This document shows positions 8,051 through 34,373 of a DNA stretch of 64,000 nucleotides, one piece after another. Made by a program: the position numbers and the translations under genes. Location: the NCBI GenBank assembly GCA_035506195.1, contig DATJPV010000041.1, forward strand, positions 112 through 64,111. The letters are read 5' to 3'. Origin of the DNA: Patescibacteria group bacterium. Its GTDB lineage: Bacteria; Omnitrophota; Gorgyraeia; Gygaellales; Profunditerraquicolaceae. Below the pieces are notes generated by a model. That model was not told the DNA's origin. It saw only the letters and a program-made list of their open reading frames with translations, and did no database searches. How positions within the stretch are numbered: the first letter of the stretch is position 1; every line of letters starts with the position of its first letter.

Positions 8051-9070
8051 TTATGCGATCGTTCTGCACGATTCCCTGACAACCAGCTCTGTGGGAAGAA
8101 CGAACTTTCTTGCCCCTCCTTTCTTGCCGCCCATCAAAAGCGTCAGTTCTTTTACAGCCTCATGCGCCATCTTCAGTAAAGGTTGTCTGACGGTGGTCAA
8201 GGCAACCGATCCGTATAGTCCTGATGGATTGTCGTCGAAACCGACGATAGACAGATCTCCGGGGACATCCCTGCCCAGTTCTTTGACAACGGTCATCACT
8301 TCCAAGGCCATGGAGTCGGAGGCGACAAATACCGCGCTCGCAGGATTATCCATCTCGATTAAGCGTTCGGCGATCTGCCTTGCCTGTCCCCGCGAATAGT
8401 CGGTCTTAAAGATGTAGTCGGGGTTTGCCTCAATGCCGCCTTTCTTCAGCGCTCTCTTATACCCCTCGAGCCGCTGACCAGCTGCCTGAGTGATCAAATC
8501 GCCGGTGATGTGGGCGATCCGTCTATGGCCCAGGCCGATCAGGTAATTAACGGCGCTTTCCGCCCCGCCGGTATTATCGATAGAAATACAACTGACATCT
8601 ATATCCGTTACGTGGTTATTGATCACGACGCAGGGGGTCCCTGTTGCGAGGGCATCCAGCAGCTGCTGCCGATTCCCGATGACATCGGCAAAAATAATCC
8701 CGCCTGCCCCTTTCAGGTTGAGAGGCGCATTCGCTTCGGTGATATGTAACAACAGGTCCAATTTTAACGATTCGCAGATGGTTCCGATGCCCCGGATCAG
8801 TTCCAGTGCGTAAAACGAATAAAAGATCCCTTCGTAACGCGGCACGATCAGGGCCACGACGTTGCTTTTCCCCGTGGCTAGCCTTTGGGCCAGCACCGAA
8901 GGCTGATAATGAAGCTCCTTTATGGCGCTTAAGACCTTAACGCGATTCTTTTCTTTGACCGACGAGAACTTATTGAGGACTCGCGAGACGGTAGTGATCG
9001 AGACACCTGCCAGGCGGGCGACATCTTCTATGGAAACAGTCGTAGAGGAGGTCTTTTTGACGCGTGTCAT
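8051..9070 (-). CDS. LacI family transcriptional regulator
   Basis: An N-terminal HTH (VSIEDVARLAGVSITTVSRVLN) is followed by a periplasmic-binding-protein-like sugar-binding core. Confidence 0.85.
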   Translation of the reverse strand: MTRVKKTSSTTVSIEDVARLAGVSITTVSRVLNKFSSVKEKNRVKVLSAIKELHYQPSVLAQRLATGKSNVVALIVPRYEGIFYSFYALELIRGIGTICESLKLDLLLHITEANAPLNLKGAGGIIFADVIGNRQQLLDALATGTPCVVINNHVTDIDVSCISIDNTGGAESAVNYLIGLGHRRIAHITGDLITQAAGQRLEGYKRALKKGGIEANPDYIFKTDYSRGQARQIAERLIEMDNPASAVFVASDSMALEVMTVVKELGRDVPGDLSIVGFDDNPSGLYGSVALTTVRQPLLKMAHEAVKELTLLMGGKKGGARKFVLPTELVVRESCRTIA

Positions 9071-9090
9071 GAGTCAGTAAAGAAGGTAAT

Positions 9091-10362
9091 TTATTTAACT
9101 ACATCCCCAATTTTTACCGGGAGCACTTCTTTCTTAATGTCGCATGCGGCAATGGACCTGCGCAGTTGTATGACCTGGACGGTCGCGATCGCTTGGGCTG
9201 CCTTATACACCTGGAATACATCGCCGACCTTTATGCCCGAATCTTCGCCCAGGTCGATTACGATGAAATTATGCTCGCGATTGACCGCGATAACCTTGCC
9301 TGCCAGGGCTTCCGTCGCCTGAGGCGCGGTTTCCTGCGCGGGGCGCACGATGATCGGCGGCAATTCTACGGACTCCGTAGAGGCAGCCTCCTCGGGTTTC
9401 TGCGCCGCAGGGTGAGGCGCGGCCGCTTTCTGTGGCGTGGCCGCGGCGGGGACGCTGGAAGCCGCTTCTTCCGCAGCAGGCGCAGTCGTTGCCTCTTCCA
9501 CTTTTTGTGTCAGGGTGTCCAGCGTCGCGTTCTTCTCTTTCACAAACGCTTCCATCTCGGAGAGCTTCTTCTGCAAGAGATTGTGTTTCTCCTCTAAATC
9601 AGCGATCTTTTTCTCCAGAATGATCTTGCGGCTGCTTAAGAATTTTACTTGCCGCCTTAAAAGGCTGTTCTCCTGGCGCAACGGCTGCATAGACTCCTGG
9701 ATGCTGAGCTTATCCGTCTTTTCCCTGACTACATCCGAAGCAAGGCTGTCAAGCATGAGCTGATTATGGCCGAGCTTGCTGGACATCTCTTTCTTTGTAA
9801 ATTCCAGTTGCCGTTTTAAATCCTGATTCTCGCGGTTGACGTTATTCATCTCCAAGGTCAACATGCCTTTTTCCTGGCGAAGCTTATCCTGCTCAATCGC
9901 GGTTTCTTTGAGCTTGCCGCTGAGCTCCTGCAACTGCACTTCCAGATCGGCCTTGGCTTTCAAGATATTTCCCCAATACGCCTCTTGGCCGGCGGGGGCG
10001 GGAAATTCTTGCGCATGGGCAGGCTGAGACTCTGCCTTAGGCATAGACTTGATCTTGTCTTCAAGCTCCTTGTTCTGCTTGACTAGCAGATCGTATTTGC
10101 CTTGAAGCTCTTGCTGTTCGCCGGTGATTTTATCAAGCTGGGTCTTTGTTTCCTGGAAGCGGGTATCGAGGTTTTTCTTTTCCTGCAGAACGCCATTGAT
10201 CTTCTTGGTGAGCTCTTCGTTCTCTTTGGTAAGCGTACTTCTTTCCTGTACGTACTGTTTTTTAAGTACCTCTTTGGAATTAAGAATATAGAACGCGTAC
10301 CCTATTACGAACAGGAGCAGCCCGATAAGGCTTAAAATCAAAAACCTTATCCTCTTTTCCAT
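9091..10362 (-). CDS. Membrane-anchored long coiled-coil protein with a C-terminal beta-rich domain, function unknown
   Basis: It has one N-terminal TM helix (FLILSLIGLLLFVIGYAFYIL) and about 250 aa of heptad-rich, K/E/Q/L-rich sequence. A Pro/Ala-rich spacer and a C-terminal domain of about 70 aa (NFIVIDLGEDSGIKVGDVFQVY) follow. The start ATG at 10360-10362 sits directly after GAGGAGGGGG. Confidence 0.6.
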   Translation of the reverse strand: MEKRIRFLILSLIGLLLFVIGYAFYILNSKEVLKKQYVQERSTLTKENEELTKKINGVLQEKKNLDTRFQETKTQLDKITGEQQELQGKYDLLVKQNKELEDKIKSMPKAESQPAHAQEFPAPAGQEAYWGNILKAKADLEVQLQELSGKLKETAIEQDKLRQEKGMLTLEMNNVNRENQDLKRQLEFTKKEMSSKLGHNQLMLDSLASDVVREKTDKLSIQESMQPLRQENSLLRRQVKFLSSRKIILEKKIADLEEKHNLLQKKLSEMEAFVKEKNATLDTLTQKVEEATTAPAAEEAASSVPAAATPQKAAAPHPAAQKPEEAASTESVELPPIIVRPAQETAPQATEALAGKVIAVNREHNFIVIDLGEDSGIKVGDVFQVYKAAQAIATVQVIQLRRSIAACDIKKEVLPVKIGDVVK

Positions 10363-10479
10363 GCCCCCTCCTCGCAATGAAAATAGCTATATTCTTTATT
10401 CGCAGCGCATAACAGTAAAAAATACTTGTTGGTACTATAACATGAAAAAATAAGTGTGTAAAGAATTTTTTGAAAATAC

Positions 10480-11595
10480 TTGATTTCGCCAAAAATTTAT
10501 TATATATTGCCTTCTATGAGGATACCGCAATGTCATCTGGTCTTCGGGGCTGCTGCGTTTGCCGCTTCAATCGCAGCCGGCTATCCTTGCACAGGCTCCT
10601 GCGCGCCGATACAGGTCTCGTCAAATGAATTACGCATGTTTGTTGACGAAACGATCGCGGAGCACAGGCAAGAAGCTATACGTTCTGCCCTGAACACGGG
10701 AGAAGCCGCGCAGTCGGCCGTCATCACACCTATGCCCGTACTTGCCGCAGCCCAGGAACCCGCAGGGCCCGCAGAACCCGTAGAACCCATGGCACCTGCC
10801 GCCAAAAAAGAGGCGCCCTCGCCTCTGGGGCAGGTTTCCGCCGCAGAAAATGCCCCTCCCGGGGAAAAAGGTGCCTGGACCGTTCCTGGAGGAAAACTCT
10901 ATTGCGAACTCTATAATAAATATTATTGGCACCACGCGCAATTCGACGACGACGGCCACAGGGTCGGCTGGGCTTACGGCGGCAAATACAACGAAACCAC
11001 CACGGATCTAAAGCTGGAGTATGGCCTTAAGGATACGACCTCGCTGCTGCTGGAGCTTCCTTACAAGGTGGCGCATTGGAAGGATGATTTTGGGCGCTAT
11101 ACGACCCGGGGCCTGGCGGATTGGTGGACGGGCGTTAAATACCGGCTGGCAACCGAACCGCTCATTACCAGCGTACAGGCAAGGGTAAAGATCCCCGGCG
11201 ACTACAATAAGAACGCTATCCCTGCCCTGGGGAGAAAACAAACGGATTACGAATTAAAGTTGCTCTTCGGCAAAGACCTGTCTAGGCTTATCAACGGTTA
11301 CGCAAAACTGGAAACGGGATACCGTTTCCGTACCCACCTGCCGACGGACGAGATCCCCTACTTCCTTGAATTTGGATATAATCTGACGAAAGCCCTGATA
11401 TTGAAGACGACCTTAGACGGAGTCAAGGGAATTCCAGGTACGGGGGAGATCGAAGAGGACTACACCAAATGGACCCTAGGCACTATCTGGAAGATAAAAA
11501 ATTACGGTATTGAACTGGGCTACGGCGATACCTTCATGGGCAAGAATACCTCTGCCGCCCAAGAAATGATCCTCTCTCTTTCCGCTTTGTTCTAA
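10480..11595 (+). CDS. Secreted protein with a Pro/Ala-rich N-terminal extension and an outer-membrane beta-barrel-like C-terminal region
   Basis: It has an N-terminal signal-like hydrophobic segment and a Pro/Ala-rich run (PAGPAEPVEPMAPAAKKEAPSP). Alternating amphipathic beta-strand patterns follow, and the C-terminal residue is Phe (SLSALF), as in many outer-membrane proteins. The true start may be the ATG at 10516. Confidence 0.45.
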   Translation: MISPKIYYILPSMRIPQCHLVFGAAAFAASIAAGYPCTGSCAPIQVSSNELRMFVDETIAEHRQEAIRSALNTGEAAQSAVITPMPVLAAAQEPAGPAEPVEPMAPAAKKEAPSPLGQVSAAENAPPGEKGAWTVPGGKLYCELYNKYYWHHAQFDDDGHRVGWAYGGKYNETTTDLKLEYGLKDTTSLLLELPYKVAHWKDDFGRYTTRGLADWWTGVKYRLATEPLITSVQARVKIPGDYNKNAIPALGRKQTDYELKLLFGKDLSRLINGYAKLETGYRFRTHLPTDEIPYFLEFGYNLTKALILKTTLDGVKGIPGTGEIEEDYTKWTLGTIWKIKNYGIELGYGDTFMGKNTSAAQEMILSLSALF

Positions 11596-11612: not shown

Positions 11613-13055
11613 TCAGATCTGGCTATAGGCGTTGCGGCACACCAACGCGGCCATCCCTAAGGAAACGGCATCTTCCTTGAACTGCGAAGGAATGACCTTG
11701 ACTGTCTTGGCGGTCTCACTGAGCGTCCACCTGCGCACCGTCGCAAGGAGGGTGTCAAAAAATACAAGCCGCGATTCCTCATCCACCTTGCCGACGATAA
11801 CGACATCGGGGTGAAGCAAGTTGACCAGATAGGCGATCCTTACCCCGAAGCGCATCCCCATTTCTGCGGCATTAGCCGCACTCAATGGTTCTATCTCATG
11901 CCTAAGAATGCAGTTGTCCTGCAACCAGCAATGCGCCGGGTCTTGGTGGTCCTTATCCCTTGAGGCGGCCAACCACATGGAGAGCTTATTGTTCTGCGAG
12001 CCTCGGTACACTTCCCCTTTAAGCATCATGCTGAAGTCGCCGCCTGAGCCCTGGCCGTCAACGCCCACGTATATGATATTATGCCGCTTAGACAACTCAA
12101 AGTTAAGCCACTTTTCCGCAAGGATGCTGGCTACGGAACCGTCTTCCACGAGTGCGGGGAGCCCAAGCTTTTCCTCAAGCAGGTCCTTGAGGCTGGCGTC
12201 ATAGCCGTTGGTCTGGCCGGTCAACCCAAGGCAGATGCCCATCATGCGGCCGCGGTCTGCCTCGGAATCTTTGACAGCCTGGTGCACCAGCGTAATCAGG
12301 CCTTCCTGCAGGCTCTTGCCTGCAGGTTTCAAGGAGACCGTCTTTTTAGCCATGACGCGCAGGACAAAGTCCGTCACCAGAACGGTCATATAATTTTTGA
12401 CAAAGTTGACCTCGGCGCCCACCATATAGCCATACTCGGCATTCAATTCCAGGAGGCTGGGGCGCCTTCCTCCGGAAGACTCATCGAACCCCCGTTCGTA
12501 GATGATGCCTTTCTTTTTGAAGTCTTCGATATAATTCGAGATGGTCACGATGTTCAAGTCTACTTCCTGGGCGATCTGGGTTTTGGAAACGGTATTTTGA
12601 CGACGCAGGACATCGAGTATCTCCAGGTTCCTCTTCTCGCGGTCAACCAGCTGCGTATCCGGGGACTTCAGGGATTTTAGCCTGGGGCAGGTATGGAAAG
12701 AAAGTTTCGTCAAACAGCTATCCAGTTTTTTTCTTTCCTCCGGGAATGCCTCGGTGAATTTGACTCCTATGCCCAGGATCTTATCTTCTTGCAGGCTTCT
12801 CTTTATCCAGCTGAGCTGCCCCAGGAACCTGACCGCTCCGCGGGTATCGGGGATCTCGATCTCCATCTCAATCTTCTTGCCCAGGTCCTCTTCCTTGAAA
12901 AGCCGGTTAATAAAAAGCCCGCCTTCCCCGATGTCGCCGGTAGGCGCATCGCAGGTCAGCGGGCGTTTTATGTCTAAAAACTTAAACCTCGTAGGCAAAG
13001 CGACTTTATAACGTGGCGCCTGCCTTCTTTCCAGTTTTACGTTCTGTTCACCCAT
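11613..13055 (-). CDS. PilZ domain fused to a ROK family (NagC/Mlc-like) transcriptional regulator
   Basis: The N-terminus carries PilZ signatures: RRQAPR (RxxxR) and DIGEGGLF, a D-x-S-x-x-G-like motif. The middle has a MarR-like HTH (ILDVLRRQNTVSKTQIAQEVDLNIVTISNYIEDF). The C-terminal half has the ROK sugar-kinase fold. Confidence 0.7.
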   Translation of the reverse strand: MGEQNVKLERRQAPRYKVALPTRFKFLDIKRPLTCDAPTGDIGEGGLFINRLFKEEDLGKKIEMEIEIPDTRGAVRFLGQLSWIKRSLQEDKILGIGVKFTEAFPEERKKLDSCLTKLSFHTCPRLKSLKSPDTQLVDREKRNLEILDVLRRQNTVSKTQIAQEVDLNIVTISNYIEDFKKKGIIYERGFDESSGGRRPSLLELNAEYGYMVGAEVNFVKNYMTVLVTDFVLRVMAKKTVSLKPAGKSLQEGLITLVHQAVKDSEADRGRMMGICLGLTGQTNGYDASLKDLLEEKLGLPALVEDGSVASILAEKWLNFELSKRHNIIYVGVDGQGSGGDFSMMLKGEVYRGSQNNKLSMWLAASRDKDHQDPAHCWLQDNCILRHEIEPLSAANAAEMGMRFGVRIAYLVNLLHPDVVIVGKVDEESRLVFFDTLLATVRRWTLSETAKTVKVIPSQFKEDAVSLGMAALVCRNAYSQI

Positions 13056-13058
13056 ATA

Positions 13059-14195
13059 TTACCAGCTGGACTCGATATACAATACTCCCCAAGTCCTCAT
13101 CCCCTTAAAACCACCCCTCATTAGTGCCCAGTTAGAAAGAAATCTTATTTTACTGTACACAAAAAACTTGCTCCGTGGCTTAAGAGATAACACTGGCAAA
13201 AAGTAGGCGACGAGAAACACCAGAAACAGAACACCCCATACCGCCAAAAGCGGGCTCTGGGCCCCGGCCACCAGGCCGAGCGCTAACTGCGTCAGAAACA
13301 TTATACCAAAAAGATGCATAAAATGGAAGTTCCCAATATATACCACGCCTTTAAAGAAGAACGGCACGGGTATATACACATAACCGAAATACTGGATGCA
13401 GATCTCCACGATATTCTTGCAGTGTTTCTGGACGGTCAGGGGATGGCCAAAACCATACCCAAAGAGCTGACGGCAAAAATCCGCCAAGGTCACCCGATGC
13501 ATATGCTCAACGATCGCGTCCGGCTTGAAATAAAGCTTAAAGCCGTTTTGCAGGATGCGTAGCGAAAAATCGACATCTTCGCTGGTGAGCTCATGCCAGA
13601 ACTCGCGGCCGATCTTATCCGCGGCGGCCTTGCTGACTGCGGCGTTGGCAGTGGCAAAAAATGGCGAATCGATATTGCCGTTGACCTCATGCGGCAAGTT
13701 CTTCTTCAAAACAGGATAATAGCCTTCCTGCGTAACCCGGCATCTGCCGCTGACGCTTAAAAATTTGGTCACCTCGCAGTACCCCTCAACGTCGTTGTGC
13801 GGATCGGTGCGCAAGGTCAAGATCTCTCCTCCCACCATGCCGACGGTAGGGTCTTTTAAAAATGGCTCCAGCATCTTATGTACCCAGTTCTTACGCGGTG
13901 CGCAATCGCCGTCAGTAAACAGGATGTAGTCACCCTGCGCGACCTTCAAGGCGGCATTCCGCGCCTGGCCGGGCGATTTGCAATTGGCAACCTCGACCAA
14001 TTTTATGAAAGGAAACTTTTTCTGCCAGTTCTTGATGATCTCTACGGTGCGGTCTTTGCTGCCGCCGTCGGCAAATACGATCTCCATCTTATCCTTGGGA
14101 TAATCGAGCTCGATTAAGTATTCCAGGTTTTTTTCGATGGTTCTGTCGATGTTACGGACCGGATTGATGATGGTGATAAAAGGTAAATTACTCAT
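13059..14195 (-). CDS. Family 2 glycosyltransferase with a C-terminal multi-pass membrane domain
   Basis: It has a GT-A fold with FADGGSKD and FTDGDC (DXD). The last 110 aa or so form 3-4 hydrophobic helices. A Shine-Dalgarno AAGGAGGG precedes the start. Confidence 0.8.
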   Translation of the reverse strand: MSNLPFITIINPVRNIDRTIEKNLEYLIELDYPKDKMEIVFADGGSKDRTVEIIKNWQKKFPFIKLVEVANCKSPGQARNAALKVAQGDYILFTDGDCAPRKNWVHKMLEPFLKDPTVGMVGGEILTLRTDPHNDVEGYCEVTKFLSVSGRCRVTQEGYYPVLKKNLPHEVNGNIDSPFFATANAAVSKAAADKIGREFWHELTSEDVDFSLRILQNGFKLYFKPDAIVEHMHRVTLADFCRQLFGYGFGHPLTVQKHCKNIVEICIQYFGYVYIPVPFFFKGVVYIGNFHFMHLFGIMFLTQLALGLVAGAQSPLLAVWGVLFLVFLVAYFLPVLSLKPRSKFFVYSKIRFLSNWALMRGGFKGMRTWGVLYIESSW

Positions 14196-14228: not shown

Positions 14229-16577
14229 CTATCCCATGGTTACGGTAACTGAATGTTCGCGACCTTGCTTGCATATGGGTATAATATTACCCTTTATTTT
14301 CTTTTCGTCAAGCTCTATACTCTTTATTCCGCAGGAGACATGGTGTGGATTGCGGACTTCGATATTATAGGCGGCACCCCGAAAAACCCGTTTCAACCTG
14401 AAGGAATCCCACTCTTTCGGAATACAGGGATCAATGAGCAGGCCGTCATAATCGGGACGCACCCCCAGGATATACCGGCTCACCGCTACCAGGTTCCAGC
14501 TGGCGGAACCCGTCAACCAGGAATTGCGGGAACGACCGAACTCCGGGCTTTCGTCTCCGGCGATGAACTGCGCGTAGACGTACGGTTCGGTCTTCTGGAT
14601 ATCGGCAATATCGTTGCGCGCCGACGGACAGGTCTTTTTGTAATATTCGTACGCACGGTCGCCCCTGCGCATGAGTGTCTCGGCAATGACCACCCAGGGG
14701 TTGGCATGGCAGAAAATGCCGCCGTTTTCCTTGAGCCCCGGACAAAAAGTACCCACCGCTCCGATATACGGATAGAACGTTTTATAGGCAGGCCAGGCGA
14801 GCTTGACCCCGTGCCTGGTGTCTAGGAACCTCTTAACCGAATCCATACAGGTAAGGCTGCGAGCCTGATCCGCAATGCCGGAAAGCACTGCCCAGGTCTG
14901 ACTGTTAAGGTGGATCTTGCCCCCCTCCTTACACTTCTTGGAACCGACGGGCCTGCCCTTATAATCAAAGACGCGGACATACCAGGCGCCGTCCCAAGCC
15001 CGTGCATTGATCGTATCTGCCATCTTCTTGTAGAGCCTTTGAAGCTTAACGGCATCTTTTTTCTTTCCGGTACGGCCTGCCAGGATAGCCAACTCTCTTG
15101 TCGCATAGCAGAGGAATTGGCCTACCCAGACGCTCTCTGCGCCCTCGCCGACATTATTGAGACAGTCATTCCAATCGGCGTAGCCTATATGCGGGATACC
15201 GTGCACACCGCAGTCCTGGAAAGAAAACCCGACCGCCCGCAAAAGGTGTTTGTATATCGGCTCGGCGGGGCCGTCGGCATAAGGCACTTTTTCTTTCAGA
15301 AAACCAAAATCGCCGGTTTCTTTAATATAATGGCCGGCAGAAACGACAAGCCATAAATGATCGTCGGAGTAGCCGGTCTTGTCTCCGGCCCTGGTGAGAG
15401 GAAAATACTGATGATAGCTGTCTCCTCTCTTGAACTGATTTTTTGCCAAATCGATAATGCGCTGTTTAACCGCCGGGGCGATGGTGTGTAAAACCCCCAA
15501 CGTATCCTGGTTGGCATCGCGAAAACCCATCCCTCTGCCGATGCCCGACTCATAGAAAGAAGCGGAGCGCGCCCAGTTAAAAGTGGTGCGGCATTGATAC
15601 TGATTCCAGACATTGACCATCGTGTTGATATCGTCGTCCGGGGTTTCAACCTGCAGGTTAACCAGTGTCCGATCCCAGTTTTGCGCAAGCTCCTGAAATT
15701 TTTTCTGTACGAAGGGCACGTCCTGGTATTTCCGGATCTTAGCGGCTGCCGAAGCCTTGTTTTCTTCGATGCCCAGGATAAAAATAAGGCATGCCTGCTC
15801 TCCCGGGCCGAGCGCTACCTTGAGGTGATGGCTTCCTATGGGATTACCGCCGCGATTGACGGAACAGAGGCTCCTGCCTTCCTCGACCACCAGCGGCCTT
15901 GCTTCATCGCGATAGTTGCCGATAAAGGCTTCGCGGTCGGTATCAAAACCTTCGATCGCGCGGTTTACGCTAAAGAACGCAAAGGTATTCCGCCGGACAT
16001 GCGGATAATAACCGGTCAAATGATATATGGTGTTCCCTACGCATTCGGCCCTGGAGATATTCAAGGAATACTGGAAATCCTGCATGTCCATAAGGGCCTG
16101 CCACAAGCAAAACTCGACATAGCTAAATACGGAAAGCTGACGGCTTGACGCCCGGAGGTTGTCTATCCGCAACAGATAGACCTCCAGGTTCTCTTTCAGG
16201 GGGACGAAGTAGGTGGTCTCGGTTCTGATATCGTTATAGGCCGAGGCTATTTTAGTGTAGCCCATACCGTGACGGCACTCGTACTGATAACCGGACAGGT
16301 CCTTGACGACCGGCTGCCAGCTGGTCGACCAGTACTCTGAGCTTGCGTTATCGCGTATATATACGTAGCGGCCGGGTCGGTCCACGGGGATACCGTTGTA
16401 ACGGTAGCGCAGGAGCCTGCGGTCGCGGGGGTCCTTATGAAAACTATAACCGCCGGCGGTATTAGAGATCATGGCACAATACTCGTCCTGCCCCAAATAG
16501 TTGATCCAGGGGGTCGGCGTATCGGGACGCGTGATAACGTATTCCTTGTTTTTCTTATCGAAGTATCCGTACTTCAT
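14229..16577 (-). CDS. GH94 glycoside phosphorylase (cellobiose/cellodextrin/chitobiose phosphorylase family)
   Basis: The N-terminus MKYGYFDKKNKEYVITRPDTPTPWINYLG is nearly identical in pattern to characterised cellobiose phosphorylases. The protein is 782 aa. Confidence 0.85.
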   Translation of the reverse strand: MKYGYFDKKNKEYVITRPDTPTPWINYLGQDEYCAMISNTAGGYSFHKDPRDRRLLRYRYNGIPVDRPGRYVYIRDNASSEYWSTSWQPVVKDLSGYQYECRHGMGYTKIASAYNDIRTETTYFVPLKENLEVYLLRIDNLRASSRQLSVFSYVEFCLWQALMDMQDFQYSLNISRAECVGNTIYHLTGYYPHVRRNTFAFFSVNRAIEGFDTDREAFIGNYRDEARPLVVEEGRSLCSVNRGGNPIGSHHLKVALGPGEQACLIFILGIEENKASAAAKIRKYQDVPFVQKKFQELAQNWDRTLVNLQVETPDDDINTMVNVWNQYQCRTTFNWARSASFYESGIGRGMGFRDANQDTLGVLHTIAPAVKQRIIDLAKNQFKRGDSYHQYFPLTRAGDKTGYSDDHLWLVVSAGHYIKETGDFGFLKEKVPYADGPAEPIYKHLLRAVGFSFQDCGVHGIPHIGYADWNDCLNNVGEGAESVWVGQFLCYATRELAILAGRTGKKKDAVKLQRLYKKMADTINARAWDGAWYVRVFDYKGRPVGSKKCKEGGKIHLNSQTWAVLSGIADQARSLTCMDSVKRFLDTRHGVKLAWPAYKTFYPYIGAVGTFCPGLKENGGIFCHANPWVVIAETLMRRGDRAYEYYKKTCPSARNDIADIQKTEPYVYAQFIAGDESPEFGRSRNSWLTGSASWNLVAVSRYILGVRPDYDGLLIDPCIPKEWDSFRLKRVFRGAAYNIEVRNPHHVSCGIKSIELDEKKIKGNIIPICKQGREHSVTVTMG

Positions 16578-16612: not shown

Positions 16613-19021
16613 TTACGTATGCGGGATCGGTTTATGATACCACTCCTTGATGACTTCCTGTGCGGGTTTGTTTTGCGGCGTATATCCGCGGTTGAACTCA
16701 CCACCCATATTCGTATGCGTCCCCCAATACCACCAGTATAACCCGTAAAACCACGGCTTATTCCAGAATAGCTCCAGCATTACCTCGTAACAGTCTTTCT
16801 GCAACTGAAGCTCAACCTGCTTGCCTGGCTGCGCCACCCAGGGCTGATCCGTGGTAGCGGTAGAACTCTTGTATCCGATCTCGGCGAAAATGATCGGCTT
16901 CTTGACCTTGGCCTGCCAGTCCTCCAACAGGTTCTCCCATACCTTCCAGGCGGTCTTTATTTCTTCTCGGGAGGGCCTGTCCTTCTCGATCAACGGGAAA
17001 TAGGGGTCCACGCCTGCGTAATCCAAAAGATCCCAGAACTCTATCCGATAATATTCATCGTACCAGTTCGCCGCATACGTCAGCCGGCCGGGATAGGTTG
17101 CGCGGACCTCTTTGATCAATTGGCGCCAGCGGTTCGGTTGAGTAAGCGCAGAGCGCGTCAACTCGGTGCCTATGCAAAATAGCTCAACCCCTTGTTCCGC
17201 AGCCATCTGTGCATAATGCAGAATGAAGGCCTGGTAGTTTTTAAACCAGGTTTCCCATTCCTGGTCAGAGTTGAATTCGATCTCTCCCCGCCAGCGGCCG
17301 TCTGACTGGTCGACCAAATCGAGGTGAGGCTTAAGCATGATCTTCATCCCCAGCTCATGGGCTTTTTGTATTGCGTGGACAAGGCCTTCATCGGTGGGCG
17401 TCTTGCCGTTGGAATGCATAGCAGTAGAATTGTATTGCTCTTGATACCAGGTAGGGCTAAAAGAAACCCACTCTACGCCCAGAGGTTTCAAGAGGCCCAA
17501 TGATTCGTCCGAAGAGGCATTTTTAAAGCTGTCTTTGTTCCAGGTTAAATAGCACATCCCTTTCTGCCAGGCCGGATACGGAACGTCTTTTATATTCGCC
17601 GCCGGCACAACGGTTTTTGCGGCAACAGGAGTAGCCTCCGGCGTCGCCACGGGAACGCTGGCCTTTGCTGATGCAAGAAGGATGTTTCCGGGTTCTGGTG
17701 TCGCAGAGGGTGCGGCGGCCGAACCTGTGGACACAGGAACGGGAACAATCGGAACGGGCGGCGTCTCGGCTTTTGCAGCAGGAGCAGGGGCAGGAGCGGC
17801 TACGGGAGACTCTGCGGTAGAAGACTCGGGAGCAGATGCGGCAACAGCTTCGGCAATCGGAGCTGCAGGCGGAGCAATCGCTGCTTCCTTCTTACTCAAT
17901 CCTTCCTTTAAAACCCGCAGGTAATAGGCTTTTTCTATGCCGGGATCGGGCTTGCTGTACCATTTAGTCAATATTTCTTCAGCGGGTTTCCCCCGAGGCG
18001 AAAATCCTCGCGTCATAGAAAGGCGAGGATTGATCGAAACCTGCCAATACCACCAATAGATACCCCAAACCCATTTCTTATAATAGAATGTTTCCAGAAA
18101 AGCGCGGTAACAATTAGCCTGGGTCTGAAGACTAAGCGGCCCCTGAGGGGCATGTTCCCAGGGGCTGTCTGCTGCGCTTTCCGAACTCTTGTACCCGATC
18201 TCCGCAAAAATAACAGGCTTTTTTAGCTTATCCTGCCATTCTTCTAATTGTTTCACCCACGGCTGCCAGGCCTTTTTAAGCTCTTCGACGCTGGGCGTCT
18301 TGGCTTCCGTTAAAGGAAAATACGGATCAACTCCGGCGTAATCCAAGAGGTCCCAGAAAGCGATTTTCTGATATTCTTCGTGCCAGTTTGCCGCGTACGT
18401 CAAGTGCCCCTTATACATGCCCCTGACTTGCGCAATCAACTGGCGCCACTGCTCCGGATGGTTAAGCGTACTTGAAGCCAACTCCGTGCCCAGGCAGATC
18501 ATCTCGACGTTCTCGGCGTTGGCAATCTCTACATAATGCAGGATGAAATCACGGTATTGATTAAACCAATTCTGCCAATCCTGCGGATCAGTGAAGTCGA
18601 TCTCTCCGCGCCACTTGCCCCCGGAAATCTCCAGGAGATCCACGTGGGGCTTGAGCATCACCTTAAAACCCAGATCATGGATCCTGCGGATGGCATGCGC
18701 AAGGCTATTGTCGCTGGGGGTCCGATGAGTAGCTTTTATCTGGGGGGTATTATAGGAATCCTGGTACCAGGTCACGACAAGGGCGACCCATTCGGCCTTG
18801 GTCCTGGCCAATTCTTTCAGGGAGTCATCAGAGGCAAACGTAGCATAGCCCTCCTTGGTCCAATCGGCGTAAATCATGCCTTTCTGAAAAGCCGGGAAAT
18901 TCGTCGATTGGTTTTTTTGTTTTAAACCGATCTGCTTAAGGGCTATTGCCGAACCGACTAACATAAGCGCGGCAAGGACAAAAAATACTCCCCGGGGAAG
19001 CTTGCGATATGAAAAAGGCAT
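16613..19021 (-). CDS. Secreted protein with two tandem clan GH-A (beta/alpha)8 glycoside hydrolase domains (GH5/GH26/GH113-like, likely beta-mannanase/glucanase)
   Basis: A signal anchor is present. Two catalytic domains of about 330 aa are roughly 50% identical to each other. Each has a GTEL acid/base-like motif and an (F/A)EIGY nucleophile-like motif. They are joined by a Pro/Ala-rich linker (APPAAPIAEAVAASAPESSTAESPVAAPAPAPAAKAETPPVPIVPVP). Confidence 0.7.
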   Translation of the reverse strand: MPFSYRKLPRGVFFVLAALMLVGSAIALKQIGLKQKNQSTNFPAFQKGMIYADWTKEGYATFASDDSLKELARTKAEWVALVVTWYQDSYNTPQIKATHRTPSDNSLAHAIRRIHDLGFKVMLKPHVDLLEISGGKWRGEIDFTDPQDWQNWFNQYRDFILHYVEIANAENVEMICLGTELASSTLNHPEQWRQLIAQVRGMYKGHLTYAANWHEEYQKIAFWDLLDYAGVDPYFPLTEAKTPSVEELKKAWQPWVKQLEEWQDKLKKPVIFAEIGYKSSESAADSPWEHAPQGPLSLQTQANCYRAFLETFYYKKWVWGIYWWYWQVSINPRLSMTRGFSPRGKPAEEILTKWYSKPDPGIEKAYYLRVLKEGLSKKEAAIAPPAAPIAEAVAASAPESSTAESPVAAPAPAPAAKAETPPVPIVPVPVSTGSAAAPSATPEPGNILLASAKASVPVATPEATPVAAKTVVPAANIKDVPYPAWQKGMCYLTWNKDSFKNASSDESLGLLKPLGVEWVSFSPTWYQEQYNSTAMHSNGKTPTDEGLVHAIQKAHELGMKIMLKPHLDLVDQSDGRWRGEIEFNSDQEWETWFKNYQAFILHYAQMAAEQGVELFCIGTELTRSALTQPNRWRQLIKEVRATYPGRLTYAANWYDEYYRIEFWDLLDYAGVDPYFPLIEKDRPSREEIKTAWKVWENLLEDWQAKVKKPIIFAEIGYKSSTATTDQPWVAQPGKQVELQLQKDCYEVMLELFWNKPWFYGLYWWYWGTHTNMGGEFNRGYTPQNKPAQEVIKEWYHKPIPHT

Positions 19022-19031
19022 ACGTATCTCC

Positions 19032-19625
19032 TTATTCTATAAGCCGCACATTGTCTATATAAATCGAGCCTTTATAAGCGGGCTTCATGTTCGACTCGAT
19101 ACGAACTCCCAATTTTCTGATATCCTGACGGAAGGCATCGGTTACTGCGGGATGACGCCAATCGGTACTGCCGGGTTTCAAGTGCGCGGCTATAGTCGTC
19201 CATTTGCCCGGCTCCAAGGCAAAGCCCCTGGACATCTCCGTCCACTCCCAGCCTTCGCCGACAGTAAGGATCAATTTAGCCTTCAGACCCGCCGGCGCAT
19301 CAGGCGGCAAAAACACCTCTACGGCAACCTGCGCATAAGGCGTCCAATCAAAATACTCGACAATCTCCATATACGCGCCTGTCCATTTGCCTCCGGGAAA
19401 ATCAACCTTGAATTCCAAAGAGGATTTACCTTCCACGGCGTATTTCTGGCTCAACGCAAGGCTGTCACCCACGTAATCTTCTTTTTCCATGGCCCAATCC
19501 GGGATCTCCCAACCCTGGGTGTCCTGCTCAAAGCCTGCCAACAGTTTTTCTGCGGCCAGGACTGCCGTCCGGCTCAGGCAAGCTATCAGGCATGCACCGA
19601 TGAGTACGCATACTATTTTTTTCAT
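19032..19625 (-). CDS. Small secreted protein, possibly a carbohydrate-binding module
   Basis: It has a signal peptide (MKKIVCVLIGACLIACLS) and is 198 aa, beta-rich and Trp-rich. The start ATG at 19623-19625 follows GAGGTG. The ORF-track version that extends to 19799 overlaps the upstream gene and is unlikely. Confidence 0.5.
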   Translation of the reverse strand: MKKIVCVLIGACLIACLSRTAVLAAEKLLAGFEQDTQGWEIPDWAMEKEDYVGDSLALSQKYAVEGKSSLEFKVDFPGGKWTGAYMEIVEYFDWTPYAQVAVEVFLPPDAPAGLKAKLILTVGEGWEWTEMSRGFALEPGKWTTIAAHLKPGSTDWRHPAVTDAFRQDIRKLGVRIESNMKPAYKGSIYIDNVRLIE

Positions 19626-19633
19626 ACGCACCT

Positions 19634-21349
19634 CTACTTGATCTTGTTCGTATACCAGTCGCTCAACAGGCCCTCCGCGATCTTGCCGCGAATGATAAAA
19701 CCGGTCGGATTGAACCTTTCCTGCGGGAAATACTGCCACCAATACATGCCCTTGAACCAGGTTTTGCCGACCAGGGCTTCGACCATGGCCTGAAGGCAAT
19801 CCGCCTGTTCCTGTTCATCTATCTTGACATCCGGTCCGGAGCGCGGCTTCCAGGGTTCAAGATTGGTGCCTTCGGCACTGCTATAACCTATTTCGGTAAA
19901 CACTACGGGCTTTTGCAACGATTCTTTAGCAAGCCACGTTTCGATCTTTGCCCCGATAGCACCCCAAGAATGAGTAAGCTGCTGGAGCGTCGGCTCTTTG
20001 GTTGAGGTCAGCGGAAAATATGCGTCGATGCCGATAAAATCAAGCTGCTTCCAGAATGACACATAATAATATTCGTTCCAGTTGGCCCCGTAAATAAGCG
20101 GCCCCTTATACTGCTCCTTTATCTTACCGATGATCCTGTCCCATTTGGCGGCATATCCGCCGATGGTAGCATTGGCCAGTTCCGTTCCGATGCAATATAA
20201 TTCTACGTTATAGGTGGCGGCGAACTTTGCGTATTGCACGATAAAATTCTCGTAACTGGCGAACCAATCGTCGCTGGGGTTGATGTCCCCGCGCCAGGCG
20301 CCGTCCTTGGTATCCACATGGGGCTTAAGCATTACCTTCATGCCTAATCGGTGGCAGGTATTAATCGCGTGCGCCAGCGCCTCGTCCGTGGGCGTATCTT
20401 TCTGGGTATCCGCATAGATGACTTTCGAATCGATAGTATCCTGGAACCAGGGGACCATGATGGCGATGCTCCTGACCCCCTTGGCATAGAGGTATGCCAA
20501 CGTCTTGTCGGAGGCGGCCTCTCCGAGTTCGGTGCGACCCCAGGACGTATACACGACCCCTTTCTGGAACTCTTCTACGGTCATCACTCCTAAGCCCGAT
20601 AAAGGCTCCTCCATGGTCGTACCGAGAGGCTGCTTCAGCTCTTCGGTGAAGGTCTTATGACCCGGCAAGGCCTCTTCGATAGGCCTATCATCAGGGTTAA
20701 GGTTTTTGGGGCCGTAAAATTCTACTTCCCACATGGAAATTCCCCATTCCGGATTCGCTCTTTTAAGGCCGAGTATCTTGACGTAGCGGGTAGCGACGGG
20801 CTCCAGGGGAATCTCGGCAGTGCCGCCGGACTGATCTTTGAGCACTTTCAGGCTCTGCCAGTTTTGCCCGTCATCAGAAGCAAGGATTTCATAGTCAACT
20901 GCATAACCGCGTTCCCATAATATTTTGATAAGAGTGACGGTCTTTTTCTCGCCGAAATCAAAAGATATCCATTGATTGTCTATGCCTAGCTTAGAGGCCC
21001 AGCGCGTATTCAGGTCTCCGTCCAGGGGTGCCATAGCATTTTGCGGCGGCGCCCAGTCAGGGGTATCGTCAAAAGAAGATGTCGTTACTGCCTGAACCTT
21101 CAAATAAACCAGGTCGCTGGGAGTCTGCGTTGTCGGTTCTGGAGCTGCCTGCGACTCTACCGCTCGTTGCTGGCCTGCCGGCTCCCTGGCTGCTTGCGGT
21201 TGTGTCGTTTGTTGTTGGTCTAGCGGTGCTTGAGTTTTCTGCGTTTCGGTTGTCTGTTGCTGCGCTGCCTGTTCCTGAGCCGCACGAGTGCAGCTGGCCG
21301 ACATAAGTACCAAAAACGCCAGTAACCAAATCCTTTGTTTTTTCAACAT
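19634..21349 (-). CDS. Secreted F5/8 type C (discoidin/CBM32-like) domain plus clan GH-A glycoside hydrolase domain, a paralog of the 16613..19021 domains
   Basis: A signal peptide is followed by a Gln/Thr-rich low-complexity linker and a discoidin-like block (NTRWASKLGIDNQWISFDFGEKKTVTLIKILWERGYAVDYEIL). The catalytic domain carries CIGTELA and VFTEIGY motifs. Confidence 0.7.
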   Translation of the reverse strand: MLKKQRIWLLAFLVLMSASCTRAAQEQAAQQQTTETQKTQAPLDQQQTTQPQAAREPAGQQRAVESQAAPEPTTQTPSDLVYLKVQAVTTSSFDDTPDWAPPQNAMAPLDGDLNTRWASKLGIDNQWISFDFGEKKTVTLIKILWERGYAVDYEILASDDGQNWQSLKVLKDQSGGTAEIPLEPVATRYVKILGLKRANPEWGISMWEVEFYGPKNLNPDDRPIEEALPGHKTFTEELKQPLGTTMEEPLSGLGVMTVEEFQKGVVYTSWGRTELGEAASDKTLAYLYAKGVRSIAIMVPWFQDTIDSKVIYADTQKDTPTDEALAHAINTCHRLGMKVMLKPHVDTKDGAWRGDINPSDDWFASYENFIVQYAKFAATYNVELYCIGTELANATIGGYAAKWDRIIGKIKEQYKGPLIYGANWNEYYYVSFWKQLDFIGIDAYFPLTSTKEPTLQQLTHSWGAIGAKIETWLAKESLQKPVVFTEIGYSSAEGTNLEPWKPRSGPDVKIDEQEQADCLQAMVEALVGKTWFKGMYWWQYFPQERFNPTGFIIRGKIAEGLLSDWYTNKIK

Positions 21350-21365: not shown

Positions 21366-21412
21366 AAAAATAGGCCAGATTCTCCTTGTCCTACAAATCT
21401 GGCCTTATCTGC
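21366..21412 (-). terminator. Candidate intrinsic terminator after the PMM/PMI gene
   Basis: On the minus strand there is a hairpin AGGCCAGAT-(15 nt)-ATCTGGCCT with a 9-bp stem. It is followed by AUUUUUUGGGAGGAUUUUAAAG and then the ATG of the 19634..21349 gene. The U-tract therefore runs directly into the next gene's GGGAGGA ribosome-binding site. Confidence 0.35.
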
Positions 21413-21507
21413 GACCCGAAATTTGGCCTTCTCTGTCTGTACAGGTTCATTAATTATAGCAAAACGCTCTTAAAAAGTCAAGTCGGATAACTTATCTGGC
21501 AGACCCG

Positions 21508-24294: not shown

Positions 24295-24383
24295 CTCCGC
24301 AGCCCTACAGCTATACACGCATGGAATTCAAACATTGGAACATTATATCAGATTTGTTTGTAAAACCCAAAGGCGAAAAAAAC

Positions 24384-34010: not shown

Positions 34011-34373
34011 TCAGGCTCGCAGGGCCCGACCCACTCCCATAAAGTCAACTTTGTCGAAACAGACGCCGACCCGGTATTGCCCCATATCTTGAGGCTCAAT
34101 CCAAGCCACCCTACCCCGTTCATAGAGGGGTTCGTGGCCATCGGGAATCCTCAGCCAGATATCCAGAAACGCATCGGGCCTTAAGGGCTGGTCGACGATC
34201 AGGCTGACTCCTTTTGCGCTCATGTTGACGACTTGACCGACGACCTCTAGGCCTTCCTGAGGGGCCAAAACCCTCAAAGGAAACTGCGCTTGAAAGCGAC
34301 GGAATATCCGCCGGTCATCCATGGCCGGTTTTAAAAAATCCTTTACCAGATGGTCCCACCAGGGCTTATCCAC
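34011..34373 (-). CDS. Stand-alone PilZ domain protein (predicted c-di-GMP receptor)
   Basis: The canonical motifs RRIFRR (RxxxR) and NMSAKG (D/N-x-S-x-x-G) are present. It uses a GTG start and lies 53 nt downstream of the giant ORF stop. Confidence 0.8.
   Translation of the reverse strand: MDKPWWDHLVKDFLKPAMDDRRIFRRFQAQFPLRVLAPQEGLEVVGQVVNMSAKGVSLIVDQPLRPDAFLDIWLRIPDGHEPLYERGRVAWIEPQDMGQYRVGVCFDKVDFMGVGRALRA

Follow-up and report, generated by a model that had tools for sequence, protein, structure and literature searches.

The window, a stretch of 64,000 nucleotides on contig DATJPV010000041.1, contains a minus-strand gene that begins with ATG and encodes 480 amino acids plus a stop codon, in the position given by the initial annotation. 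Its product is identical to GenBank HTY45740.1, where it is named just “PilZ domain-containing protein.” The protein carries an N-terminal PilZ domain, a winged helix-turn-helix (wHTH) and a reduced ROK scaffold, and its gene belongs to an operon of glycan-active genes (Table 1). It is small and soluble-looking, and it is amenable to direct in vitro testing.

Table 1. Features of the PilZ-wHTH-ROK gene, its operon and other elements of the window, in window coordinates.
Feature	Position	Strand	Basis or remark
PilZ-wHTH-ROK gene	11613..13055	-	ORF translation, Pfam, identity to HTY45740.1
PilZ domain, aa 9-118 (loop at the N-terminus, beta-barrel of six strands, C-terminal helix at aa 105-118)	12702..13031	-	Pfam, AF2, Foldseek
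RxxxR motif R11-Q-A-P-R15, within invariant E-R-R-x-x-x-R	13011..13025	-	Family alignment
Second PilZ motif D41-I-G43-E-G-G46	12918..12935	-	[D/N]hSxxG with Ser replaced by Gly
Variable linker, aa 119-137, PilZ helix to first HTH helix	12645..12701	-	pLDDT, conservation
wHTH, ROK-repressor type, aa 138-205	12441..12644	-	HTH_24, alignment to Lmo0178/XylR
Reduced ROK (sugar-kinase-like) scaffold, aa 206-480	11616..12440	-	Pfam, alignments, Foldseek, family profile
GT2 glycosyltransferase, hydrophobic C-terminal region	13059..14195	-	Directly upstream of the PilZ-ROK gene, same operon
GH94 glycoside phosphorylase	14229..16577	-	485.8 and 283.7 bits
Tandem double GH113 protein, signal-peptide-like N-terminus	16613..19021	-	Two GH113 stretches in profile search
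Small secreted mannan-binding-domain protein (Mann_GBD_bact), 197 aa from internal ATG	19032..19625	-	
GH113 protein with F5/8 type C carbohydrate-binding domain; first operon gene	19634..21349	-	
Leader hairpin, perfect 10-bp inverted repeat AGGCCAGATT N14 AATCTGGCCT	21372..21405	-	T-run after it, 25 nt before start codon
Candidate operon promoter TTGACT-17-TATAAT, TG-extended	21453..21481	-	11/12 matches
LacI-family repressor gene	8051..9070		
Stand-alone PilZ protein	34011..34373		Canonical RxxxR and NxSxxG; directly after giant gene

The PilZ-ROK gene starts 3 nt past the GT2 stop codon. At every locus compared it is the distal gene of a beta-glycan operon, following GH113, Mann_GBD and GH94 genes and then GT2 or, in deep relatives, a GH116 gene in the GT2 slot; ABC-transporter genes often join these operons. 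This position is the same at 82%, 46%, ~30% and ~27% protein identity. For example, the GH113 gene with the F5/8 type C domain is conserved as the first gene of the operon in loci L001, L005 and L087, orthologues of the Mann_GBD_bact protein are found in L001, L003, L087 and L088, and GH94 is conserved in L001, L003 and L087. The tandem GH113 gene corresponds to two separate genes in L001. These partners (GH113, Mann_GBD, GH94, GH116 or GT2, and in many cases ABC-transporter genes) indicate a catabolic beta-glycan locus. The initial annotation had linked the regulator to adjacent GT2 and GH94 genes; a tight and conserved linkage to glycan genes was found, but it is not specific to those two, since GH113 and Mann_GBD are partners as well. 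In addition, synteny of the LacI-family repressor gene with a ROK or PilZ-ROK gene is seen in the window, in L001 and L003 and in the ROK-only locus L085. This synteny was absent from the deep-member loci L087 and L088.

The sole strong promoter candidate lies ahead of the first GH113 gene, 8.4 kb upstream of the PilZ-ROK gene, and L001 and L005 share its -35 box. The initial annotation had proposed operators upstream of positions 14195 and 16577. However, these are intra-operon gaps of 33-35 nt with no strong promoter. The leaders of L001 and L005 also contain a stem followed by a U-tract, with different stem sequences. The inverted repeat in the window leader could be an attenuator acting as RNA or possibly an operator acting as DNA, and an attenuator-like hairpin makes it possible that the operon is controlled partly or wholly by a different mechanism. 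No Rfam family, the c-di-GMP riboswitches included, reached its gathering score in the whole window, and the leader gave only chance-level matches; a riboswitch in the leader was accordingly rejected.

ROK regulators are typically encoded inside sugar operons and autoregulate them through 23-bp palindromes (PMC3553997). Footprinting of the non-coding regions at seven PilZ-ROK loci revealed no shared palindromic operator above shuffled controls; the best motif was AT-rich and occurred in three of the seven loci, and the controls reached up to three. CCAGAT/ATCTGG half-sites, suggested by the leader repeat of the window and an 11-mer that also occurs in L001, were rejected as a general operator because they were not concentrated close to promoters of other loci. 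In the ROK-only sister group, eight loci have the palindrome TGACACT-N10-AGTGTTA flanked by the -35 and -10 boxes of the promoter ahead of their own gene, which supports DNA-binding autoregulation in the protein family. Its core, ACACT-N10-AGTGT, was rejected as an operator in the window, where five matches with up to two mismatches were found and 10.7 were expected, none of them intergenic.

The window also contains a giant ORF that runs to 9,857 aa or more, and the stand-alone PilZ gene follows directly after it, which speaks for c-di-GMP signalling in the organism. On the other side, neither GGDEF nor EAL nor HD-GYP domains were detected anywhere in the window, its giant ORF included. Passages of a preprint on Omnitrophota giant proteins describe these as often carrying GGDEF, with genes for PilZ, a solute-binding protein, transporters and glycosyl hydrolases after them (bioRxiv 10.1101/2023.11.21.568195).

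Three modules of HTY45740.1 (PilZ, HTH_24 and ROK) score above their Pfam gathering cutoffs. The AlphaFold2 model of the full-length protein has a pLDDT of 84.4 and a pTM of 0.78, and its best Foldseek matches in the PDB are HTH-bearing ROK repressors, namely Lmo0178 with its operator (E 1.5e-20), Mlc and MecR2. Every module is under purifying selection when compared with the 82% orthologue, with dN/dS values of 0.175 for PilZ, 0.013 for the wHTH and 0.099 for ROK. The PilZ-wHTH-ROK architecture is real, and the protein has a three-module build. The proposal of the initial annotation that PilZ is fused to an HTH-bearing ROK-type protein is borne out by Pfam and by the folds, but its details of the PilZ and ROK motifs are not. 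From its modules the protein is predicted to be a one-component transcription regulator. We hold this at slightly better than even, a grade that covers the modules, origin and mechanism of the best explanation jointly.

The architecture had been called uncommon, and it is indeed rare: it was found in ~16 clusters among 1.84 billion representatives and in three of 185,579 species genomes, and no description of it was found in the literature searched. The named relatives are nearly all from Omnitrophota, and all 23 members of the clade match PilZ. The closest ROK-only relative is P0009, and the synteny of ROK, coiled-coil and LacI genes is held in common with it. In a bootstrapped neighbor-joining tree of the HTH-ROK part, the main PilZ-bearing clade was recovered in 56 of 60 replicates, and the deep members P0051 and P0057 always fell outside it. 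The tree thus falls short of proving that PilZ was gained once and that the pocket eroded afterwards. Both deep members have a full-length ROK module and retain AGE, and P0057 retains ND too. The clade would have arisen by addition of PilZ N-terminal to a resident ROK regulator of a beta-mannan/beta-glucan operon.

The initial annotation had made its PilZ assignment depend on the N-terminal region reaching the PilZ HMM threshold, and this region passes the Pfam threshold (PF07238, 29.9 bits against a gathering cutoff of 22.5, E 7e-7), matching profile positions 1-100 of 102 over aa 9-115. An AlphaFold2 model of PilZ only has a pLDDT of 81.3, with strands at 21-26, 34-40, 46-53, 61-67, 74-86 and 93-103 and then a helix at 105-122. 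In the model the module has the canonical fold of an N-terminal loop, a barrel and a C-terminal helix. Its best 36 Foldseek matches in the PDB are all PilZ domains, mostly complexes with c-di-GMP, and these neighbours include MotI, Alg44, YcgR, MapZ, BcsA, PlzA and MrkH. Both PilZ signatures had been reported in the initial annotation. RxxxR is indeed intact, with R11 and R15 each kept in at least 90% of the 23 aligned members. The second motif departs from the canonical [D/N]hSxxG by having Gly (G43) in place of Ser; its D, hydrophobic residue and last Gly are kept. Among the 23 members this position is Ser in 14, Gly in six and Ala in two; G46 is invariant, and the D/N and the hydrophobic residue are conserved as well.

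Ser-to-Ala at this position impairs binding in some PilZ proteins, and no characterized PilZ domain with Gly there was found. Binding of c-di-GMP by HTY45740.1 is predicted and plausible, and the Ser-to-Gly change weakens the inference. Because G43 alters a motif that contacts c-di-GMP, the PilZ domain of the Gly subclade could instead be blind to c-di-GMP, as in the PA2960/XAC1133 type, and serve as a protein-protein adaptor or structural element of a regulator that answers another partner or signal or is constitutive. Non-binding PilZ domains acting by protein-protein contacts are documented (bioRxiv 10.1101/814665; PMC11800159), and the window encodes no c-di-GMP-metabolizing enzyme. However, ERRxxxR is invariant and the rest of the second motif is retained. 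Gly and Ala are the sole replacements at the Ser position, and they occur in three or more sublineages with sister lineages that keep Ser, which suggests a tolerated small-residue position rather than decay of the site. In addition, the PilZ dN/dS indicates that the domain is maintained within the Gly subclade. We therefore regard a c-di-GMP-blind PilZ as rather unlikely.

The ROK module recognized in the initial annotation retains its fold, but all four signature motifs of the family are missing (alignment; motif definitions from PMC5458393). Foldseek matches to ROK repressors cover ~390-400 alignment columns of the two-lobed ROK/ASKHA fold at E 1e-20 to 1e-17, and the family profile matched the PDB sequences of Lmo0178 (8e-42), 2hoe (TM1224, 3e-26) and, also among the best, MecR2 (4ija). 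The 2hoe protein is the Thermotoga ManR tested in PMC3553997. The Pfam match (PF00480, 34.2 bits against 22.9) is confined to aa 387-473, equivalent to profile positions 206-292 of 294 in the C-terminal third, and the NCBIfam equivalog scores fall far below their cutoffs (Mlc, 47 bits against 530; NagC, 45.5 against 650). The DxGxT site reads G213-A-E215-V-N-F-V. This motif is also degenerate in aligned ROK regulators, for example “GVDI” in P0035-P0046, so its absence excludes a kinase and not ROK membership. The catalytic and sugar-binding Asp is lost, with E304-D-G306-S-V aligned to the canonical E-N-D-A/S-N. ExGH is lost together with its His, K357-L-S-M-W-L362 being aligned to S-G-E-x-G-H. 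The zinc motif CxCGxxGCx(E/D) is reduced to C376 and C382 in “HCWLQDNCILR,” in a region predicted to be disordered (pLDDT 49-62), and it is wholly missing in P0010 and P0012. Two segments of ~19 aa and ~47 aa are deleted, and the pocket losses comprise a hairpin deletion and the 47-aa deletion along with the change of END to EDG and the loss of AGExGH and of most of the zinc motif.

The loss of the four motifs together with the two deletions makes canonical sugar sensing unlikely. Judged by its residues, the scaffold appears to keep its fold without the canonical sugar, ATP and zinc sites, and the reading of the protein as a sugar regulator, made in the initial annotation, has to be revised: with its pocket residues gone, it probably does not sense a sugar. 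A dimerizing role of the reduced scaffold is predicted and is probably retained, although the deletions might compromise dimerization. PilZ looks like a replacement input instead of an added one. Alternatively, the protein may have a dual input: a non-canonical pocket in the eroded ROK module would continue to accept a carbohydrate or phosphosugar, for instance a breakdown product of mannan or cellodextrin, and c-di-GMP would only modulate the response. The gene lies within a catabolic glycan operon, like those of sugar-responsive ROK regulators (PMC3553997), and the ROK module is under purifying selection. The pocket elements kept in P0051 and P0057 also make a dual input plausible as the ancestral state. 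For HTY45740.1 itself a dual input is improbable, all canonical sugar-contacting elements being substituted or deleted and the zinc loop modeled with such low confidence.

The wHTH lies N-terminal to the ROK domain, as is the case in the ROK-repressor subclass. HTH_24 was matched at 22.0 bits against a cutoff of 21.9 over aa 141-185, and the region aligns to the HTH of Lmo0178 and XylR, with the recognition helix L-N-I-V-T-I-S-N-Y and the wing/linker S-S-G-G-R-R-P. It is preceded by the linker, which has a lower pLDDT (74-79) and is poorly conserved; a flexible connection of ~20 aa would thus join PilZ to the wHTH. The wHTH is the most constrained module, being 97% identical to that of the 82% orthologue, and it retains 47-66% identity where the remaining modules have 19-34%. 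That it is by far the most conserved module is the pattern expected of a DNA-reading head. This conservation bears on a third explanation, a c-di-GMP-gated anti-repressor like MecR2 that does not bind DNA itself and antagonizes another regulator, for which the LacI-family protein is the obvious candidate. MecR2 ranks high in both the fold and the sequence comparisons, and the LacI gene is syntenic at the four loci noted above. Such a role is nevertheless very improbable given the dN/dS of 0.013 in the wHTH, the promoter-embedded palindrome of the related ROK-only group and the lack of LacI synteny in the deep members. Lastly, a c-di-GMP-regulated ROK sugar kinase acting on hexose from GH94, GH113 or GH116 can be dismissed: ROK kinases are known from such operons and GH94 phosphorolysis yields free hexose that would supply one, but this function is effectively refuted by the absence of DxGxT, the catalytic Asp and ExGH, and the protein has a highly constrained wHTH and repressors as its best structural matches.

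The explanation that we lean toward is a putative operon regulator of ROK type in which c-di-GMP has taken the place of sugar as the input. A dimer of the regulator would bind an operator of its own operon, which is served by the candidate promoter. In an ordinary ROK repressor, a sugar acts as the switch by closing the ROK cleft. In HTY45740.1, the switch would be the binding of c-di-GMP to the loop and barrel of PilZ, which would shift PilZ relative to the neighbouring HTH or bridge two PilZ domains. Our preference, a weak one, is for c-di-GMP as an inducer that would relieve repression. At high c-di-GMP, for example on attachment, the genes for glycan degradation and uptake would then switch on. 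The glycan-degrading operon is probably under second-messenger control. Tentatively, there may also be a wider sensor replacement, in which a ROK repressor of a glycan operon gained PilZ, its sugar pocket decayed and c-di-GMP rather than the substrate came to govern the operon; it would form the transcriptional link in Omnitrophota from the GGDEF giant proteins and their adjacent pilZ to the downstream glycoside hydrolases and transporters. If so, second-messenger signalling, for instance upon contact with a host or prey cell, would turn on glycan degradation and uptake.

These predictions would be of interest for several reasons. First, c-di-GMP-responsive transcription factors are few and structurally diverse, and joining PilZ to a classical wHTH/ROK repressor would couple c-di-GMP to gene expression in a new way. 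Secondly, it would be a traceable case of an input swap in a regulator, since the ROK pocket is still partly intact in some members of the family and eroded in others. Third, c-di-GMP would be tied to carbohydrate foraging and not to motility or exopolysaccharide synthesis. Lastly, the Omnitrophota are an uncultured phylum of very small bacteria that are possibly predatory or epibiotic, and to our knowledge essentially nothing is known of their regulation.

Several known systems can be compared with the locus and its regulator. In the passages concerned, West-Roberts et al. describe “Archaeovorin” loci (bioRxiv 10.1101/2023.11.21.568195) that resemble the window in having a giant ORF, then a small canonical pilZ and same-strand transporters and glycosyl hydrolases downstream. 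They differ in that GGDEF is reported in the giant proteins, whereas the portion of the giant ORF covered by the window yielded none. The passages of that preprint on GGDEF, c-di-GMP and diguanylate mention small pilZ homologues and no PilZ-ROK regulator.

In the canonical PilZ domain as Galperin and Chou define it, a loop with RxxxR at the N-terminus is followed by a barrel of six strands and then by a C-terminal helix (bioRxiv 10.1101/814665). Alg44, YcgR, MotI, MapZ and BcsA share these elements with HTY45740.1, which differs in the Gly of motif 2 and in having a DNA-binding module as its output, whereas theirs is a motor, a synthase or a methyltransferase. MrkH of Klebsiella and PlzA of Borrelia are alike in that PilZ is the c-di-GMP input of a transcription regulator, and both are neighbours of the PilZ model, MrkH being 22nd among its Foldseek matches. 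However, they have tandem PilZ-like domains (PilZN-type plus PilZ) and no HTH (bioRxiv 10.1101/814665). Regulators of the MrkH type depend on c-di-GMP and bind nucleic acid through the PilZ-type domains themselves. HTY45740.1 lacks the MrkH-type tandem of PilZN2 and PilZ, and combines a single PilZ with a separate classical wHTH and an oligomerization scaffold.

The ROK repressors of sugar operons (Lmo0178 of Listeria, XylR of Bacillus and Staphylococcus, ManR/TM1224 and BglR of Thermotoga, and NagC and Mlc of E. coli) share the wHTH, the S-x-G-G-R-x-P wing/linker and the two-lobed ROK domain, and the autoregulated Thermotoga ROK regulators are likewise encoded within a glycan-catabolic operon (PMC3553997). 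Compared with these repressors, HTY45740.1 has an extra N-terminal PilZ and two deletions, and it is without the CxCGxxGC zinc motif, ExGH and the Asn-Asp of the catalytic loop; the seven PilZ-ROK loci yielded no palindromic operator of 23 bp for it. MecR2 of S. aureus (4ija) also has the ROK fold with an N-terminal wHTH but no longer the canonical sites for sugar and zinc, and so provides a precedent for the re-use of ROK outside sugar sensing. Arede et al. reportedly described it in 2013 as a ROK protein with lost sugar and zinc sites that acts as an anti-repressor, and it is said not to bind DNA and instead to bind the MecI repressor. MecR2 has no PilZ domain, and the extreme constraint on the HTH of HTY45740.1 argues for DNA binding, unlike MecR2.

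The reading best supported by our analysis is that PilZ-ROK, a 480-codon ORF with an ATG start 3 nt past the stop codon that ends the preceding GT2 gene, encodes a ROK-type operon regulator with its effector input relocated from the ROK cleft to a PilZ domain at the N-terminus. GenBank holds the identical protein as HTY45740.1, from a “Patescibacteria group bacterium” MAG, titled just “PilZ domain-containing protein.” The N-terminus, whose PilZ assignment the initial annotation had left to the HMM threshold, passed it with a near-complete profile (residues 9-115, 29.9 bits; gathering threshold 22.5). HTH_24 was matched at residues 141-185 (22.0 bits; threshold 21.9) and ROK at residues 387-473 only, the final third of the profile (34.2 bits; threshold 22.9).

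The full-length AlphaFold2 model, built with 45 homologues as input, had a mean pLDDT of 84.4 and a pTM of 0.78. In a Foldseek search of the PDB its first match was Listeria Lmo0178 on its operator (E 1.5e-20), followed by the Vibrio Mlc homologue 1z05, E. coli Mlc and S. aureus MecR2; the leading matches are ROK repressors with an HTH. The N-terminal 135 residues modelled alone (pLDDT 81.3) show six beta-strands between an unstructured N-terminal loop and a C-terminal helix, the topology of the canonical PilZ domain as defined by Galperin and Chou (bioRxiv 10.1101/814665). All of its best 36 PDB neighbours are PilZ domains, mostly c-di-GMP-bound crystals, and include MotI, Alg44, YcgR, MapZ, BcsA, PlzA, MrkH and VCA0042. 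Given these matches, the three-module PilZ-wHTH-ROK architecture is real, and Pfam, AlphaFold2 and Foldseek agree on the fusion originally proposed.

Only one of the two PilZ signatures initially claimed is intact. RxxxR is present (R11..R15, within an invariant E-R-R-x-x-x-R), but the second motif reads D41-I-G43-E-G-G46, with Gly where [D/N]hSxxG has Ser; one c-di-GMP-contacting residue is non-canonical. The 23 PilZ-bearing relatives compared all retain the D/N, the hydrophobic residue and the final Gly, and the Ser position holds Ser in 14, Gly in 6 and Ala in 2. Gly-type members fall into at least three distinct sublineages, each with Ser-type nearest sisters. The position thus looks like a tolerated small-residue site and not a decayed motif. 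In addition, Nei-Gojobori dN/dS against the 82% orthologue was 0.175 for PilZ, 0.166 for the linker, 0.013 for the wHTH and 0.099 for ROK; the PilZ value indicates that this domain is maintained in the Ser-to-Gly subclade. The foremost rival is that the PilZ domain is a c-di-GMP-blind adaptor; the Gly substitution is consistent with this, and the intact RxxxR loop with binding. No GGDEF, EAL or HD-GYP domain was found in the window's large ORFs, the giant ORF with its 9,857 aa included.

The initial description of the remainder as a ROK regulator with an HTH holds for the fold and the HTH_24 match, but not for the ROK signatures. These are DxGxT, a catalytic Asp, ExGH and CxCGxxGCx(E/D) (PMC5458393, citing Conejo et al. 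2010). In the alignment, DxGxT is replaced by E215-V-N-F-V, the E-N-D catalytic loop by E304-D-G306 and S-G-E-x-G-H by K357-L-S-M-W-L362, and only C376 and C382 of the zinc motif are kept. Two segments are deleted: about 19 aa after G-I-G-L-G-L-T-G, which in ordinary ROK proteins is the hairpin that contacts the sugar, and about 47 aa beyond the former zinc loop. The region of that loop is the sole poorly predicted part of the model. NCBIfam Mlc and NagC scores were 45-47 bits against cutoffs of 530-650. A second rival is a dual-input regulator that would still sense a sugar; these losses make canonical sugar sensing unlikely. A third is a MecR2-like anti-repressor of the syntenic LacI-family regulator; MecR2 is among the structural matches, and the HTH stays at 47-66% identity across the deepest divergences, where PilZ and ROK drop to 19-34%, the behaviour of a module that reads DNA at a conserved target. 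Judging from these motifs, kinase activity can effectively be excluded.

PilZ-ROK is rare, as initially suspected. The full-length family profile, searched against 1.84 billion cluster representatives, matched 16,230 ROK-type proteins, and in only about 16 clusters did the match begin in the PilZ part. In 185,579 species, one genome each, relatives were encoded at 79 loci; residues 1-480 were covered at three, and at the others the match begins near residue 125-135. Pfam found PilZ in all 23 aligned members, HTH_24 in 20 and ROK in 18; three are fragments. Labels are nearly all Omnitrophota, or “uncultured Planctomycetia” (one submitter's bins). Our literature search found no description of such a protein, and a term search of the PilZ architecture survey (bioRxiv 10.1101/814665) turned up no HTH or ROK fusions.

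The closest ROK-only relative (P0009) has the same downstream ROK - coiled-coil/FlgT_C - LacI synteny, which suggests that PilZ joined a regulator gene already in place. A bootstrapped NJ tree was built from the HTH-ROK columns of 18 PilZ-bearing and additional ROK-only proteins, and 15-16 of the 18 group together in a single clade in 56 of 60 replicates. P0051 and P0057, the two members whose ROK module is complete, are placed outside that clade every time, with the ROK-only proteins. A common linker architecture and operon position argue for a single fusion, in which case faster ROK evolution would have distorted the tree; alternatively, some lineages may have lost PilZ, or fusion may have happened more than once. 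Given this placement, PilZ gain followed by pocket loss is offered only as a hypothesis.

PilZ-ROK is the final gene of a co-directional, tightly spaced array that opens with the GH113 + F5/8 type C gene and continues through the mannan-binding-domain protein, the tandem GH113, GH94 and GT2. Farther upstream on the same strand are a PGM/PMM fusion, an MFS sugar transporter, GH130 and other sugar enzymes. The arrangement recurs in L003 (82% identity) and L001 (46%), with ABC permeases upstream and a solute-binding protein downstream; in L005 (~30%); and in L087 and L088 (~27-30%), where GH116 replaces GT2 and a solute-binding-protein gene overlaps the regulator's stop codon. The conserved theme is beta-mannan/beta-glucan utilisation, and GT2 fills the slot adjoining the regulator in a lineage-specific way. 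The enzyme in that slot is a membrane GT2 for the window, L001 and L003, and of GH116 beta-glucosidase type in the deeper relatives; a synthase within an otherwise catabolic operon is odd. The trio next to PilZ-ROK (8051-11595) is conserved in synteny: L001 and L003 have all of it, and ROK-only locus L085 has it minus the unknown protein. Its divergent promoter region is highly conserved with L003. The 936-aa PGM/PMM protein has four such domains in its first ~540 aa and a ~400-aa tail without Pfam match, unusual for a phosphomannomutase.

Features of the window and of related loci
Feature	Position	Strand
Giant ORF	34427-64000	-
Stand-alone PilZ, 120 aa	34011-34373	-
379-aa ORF	32824-33963	-
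LacI-type ligand-binding protein, 293 aa	31973-32854	-
936-aa PGM/PMM protein	21508-24318	-
TTGACT-17-TATAAT	21481..21453	
Leader stem + U-tract	21372-21405	-
Leader stem + U-tract	L001 ~1645-1682; L005 ~4618-4638	
GGAGAATCTGG	21375-21385; L001 1601-1611	
GH113 + F5/8 type C domain	19634-21349	-
Mannan-binding-domain protein	19032-19625	-
Tandem GH113	16613-19021	-
GH94	14229-16577	-
GT2	13059-14195	-
PilZ-ROK	11613-13055	-
Trio: unknown protein, 300-370 aa, no Pfam match	10480-11595	opposite to regulator
Divergent promoter region	10378-10479	
Trio: coiled-coil protein, FlgT_C-like C-terminus	9091-10377	
Trio: LacI-family regulator	8051-9070	
GH116	L087 5821-7986; L088 5813-7984	
TGACACT-N10-AGTGTTA	L015 9814; L025 9577; L028 1429; L031 9826; L034 9828; L084 9857; L024 169; L029 175	

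Operators had been proposed upstream of 14195 and 16577, but those gaps are 33-35 nt and lack a promoter comparable to TTGACT-17-TATAAT, the best sigma-70-like site in 18 kb, which sits in the 158-bp gap ahead of the first GH113 gene; L001 and L005 share its -35 box and the sequence around it. No palindrome common to seven PilZ-ROK loci exceeded shuffled expectation, and a CCAGAT half-site failed as an operator. Pooling 87 loci revealed T-G-ACACT-N10-AGTGT-T-A at eight ROK-only loci, between the TTGACA (-35) and TATACT (-10) of a promoter some 150-190 nt ahead of the ROK gene. It is probably the autoregulatory operator of this sister group, and its classical promoter-embedded layout supports DNA binding in the protein family. 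It is absent from the window.

In the window, L001 and L005 alike, the operon leader 3' of the conserved promoter carries a 9-11-bp GC-rich stem and a U-rich tract. Its structure is kept and its sequence is not (Z-scores -1.9 in the window, -3.75 in L001, -3.2 in L005), and it is attenuator-like, with no Rfam match. The 11-mer GGAGAATCTGG lies in a leader hairpin arm in the window, and in L001 it falls within the orthologous promoter, in the -35/-10 spacer; its placement relative to the promoter thus differs. It also occurs once in L031.

The giant ORF, at least 9,857 aa and probably longer since it runs to the window edge, has Pfam matches to two receiver domains, several methyltransferase domains, a GT1 glycosyltransferase and an adenylate kinase domain. 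The stand-alone PilZ directly downstream (47.1 bits) has canonical R-R-I-F-R-R and N-M-S-A-K-G motifs and is no close paralogue of the PilZ domain in PilZ-ROK. According to West-Roberts et al. (bioRxiv 10.1101/2023.11.21.568195), Omnitrophota giant genes, which this ORF resembles, often carry GGDEF and are followed 3' by a small pilZ, then solute-binding proteins, transporters and glycosyl hydrolases, a layout the window reproduces. Together with the synteny and nearly all named homologues, this argues that the source is an Omnitrophota member and that the Patescibacteria label probably reflects a mistake in binning or classification. The 379-aa ORF, without Pfam match, shows ASKHA/sugar-kinase-like motifs by eye (IDLG..., NDGIAAG, GPGSGLGG) and overlaps the start of the LacI-type ligand-binding protein, in which, as listed, no LacI HTH was matched.

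For PilZ-ROK as a ROK-type regulator with relocated input, we infer ligand binding, DNA binding, target and sign of regulation. c-di-GMP would bind the RxxxR loop and barrel and reposition the PilZ domain, whose tether ends 20 residues on at HTH helix 1, or alternatively bridge two PilZ domains; either would change operator affinity. Derepression at high c-di-GMP is weakly favoured by analogy with effector-released ROK repressors. PilZ-ROK, real, rare and only trivially annotated, is a clean, testable candidate for a new class of c-di-GMP-responsive transcription factor, with its functions inferred, and for input swapping in a regulator. Thermotoga sugar-operon ROK regulators bind 23-bp palindromes and autoregulate (PMC3553997), and one of them, ManR/TM1224 (PDB 2hoe), is among the best profile matches to the family. 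PilZ-ROK joins two known kinds of protein, the PilZ receptor and the ROK repressor.
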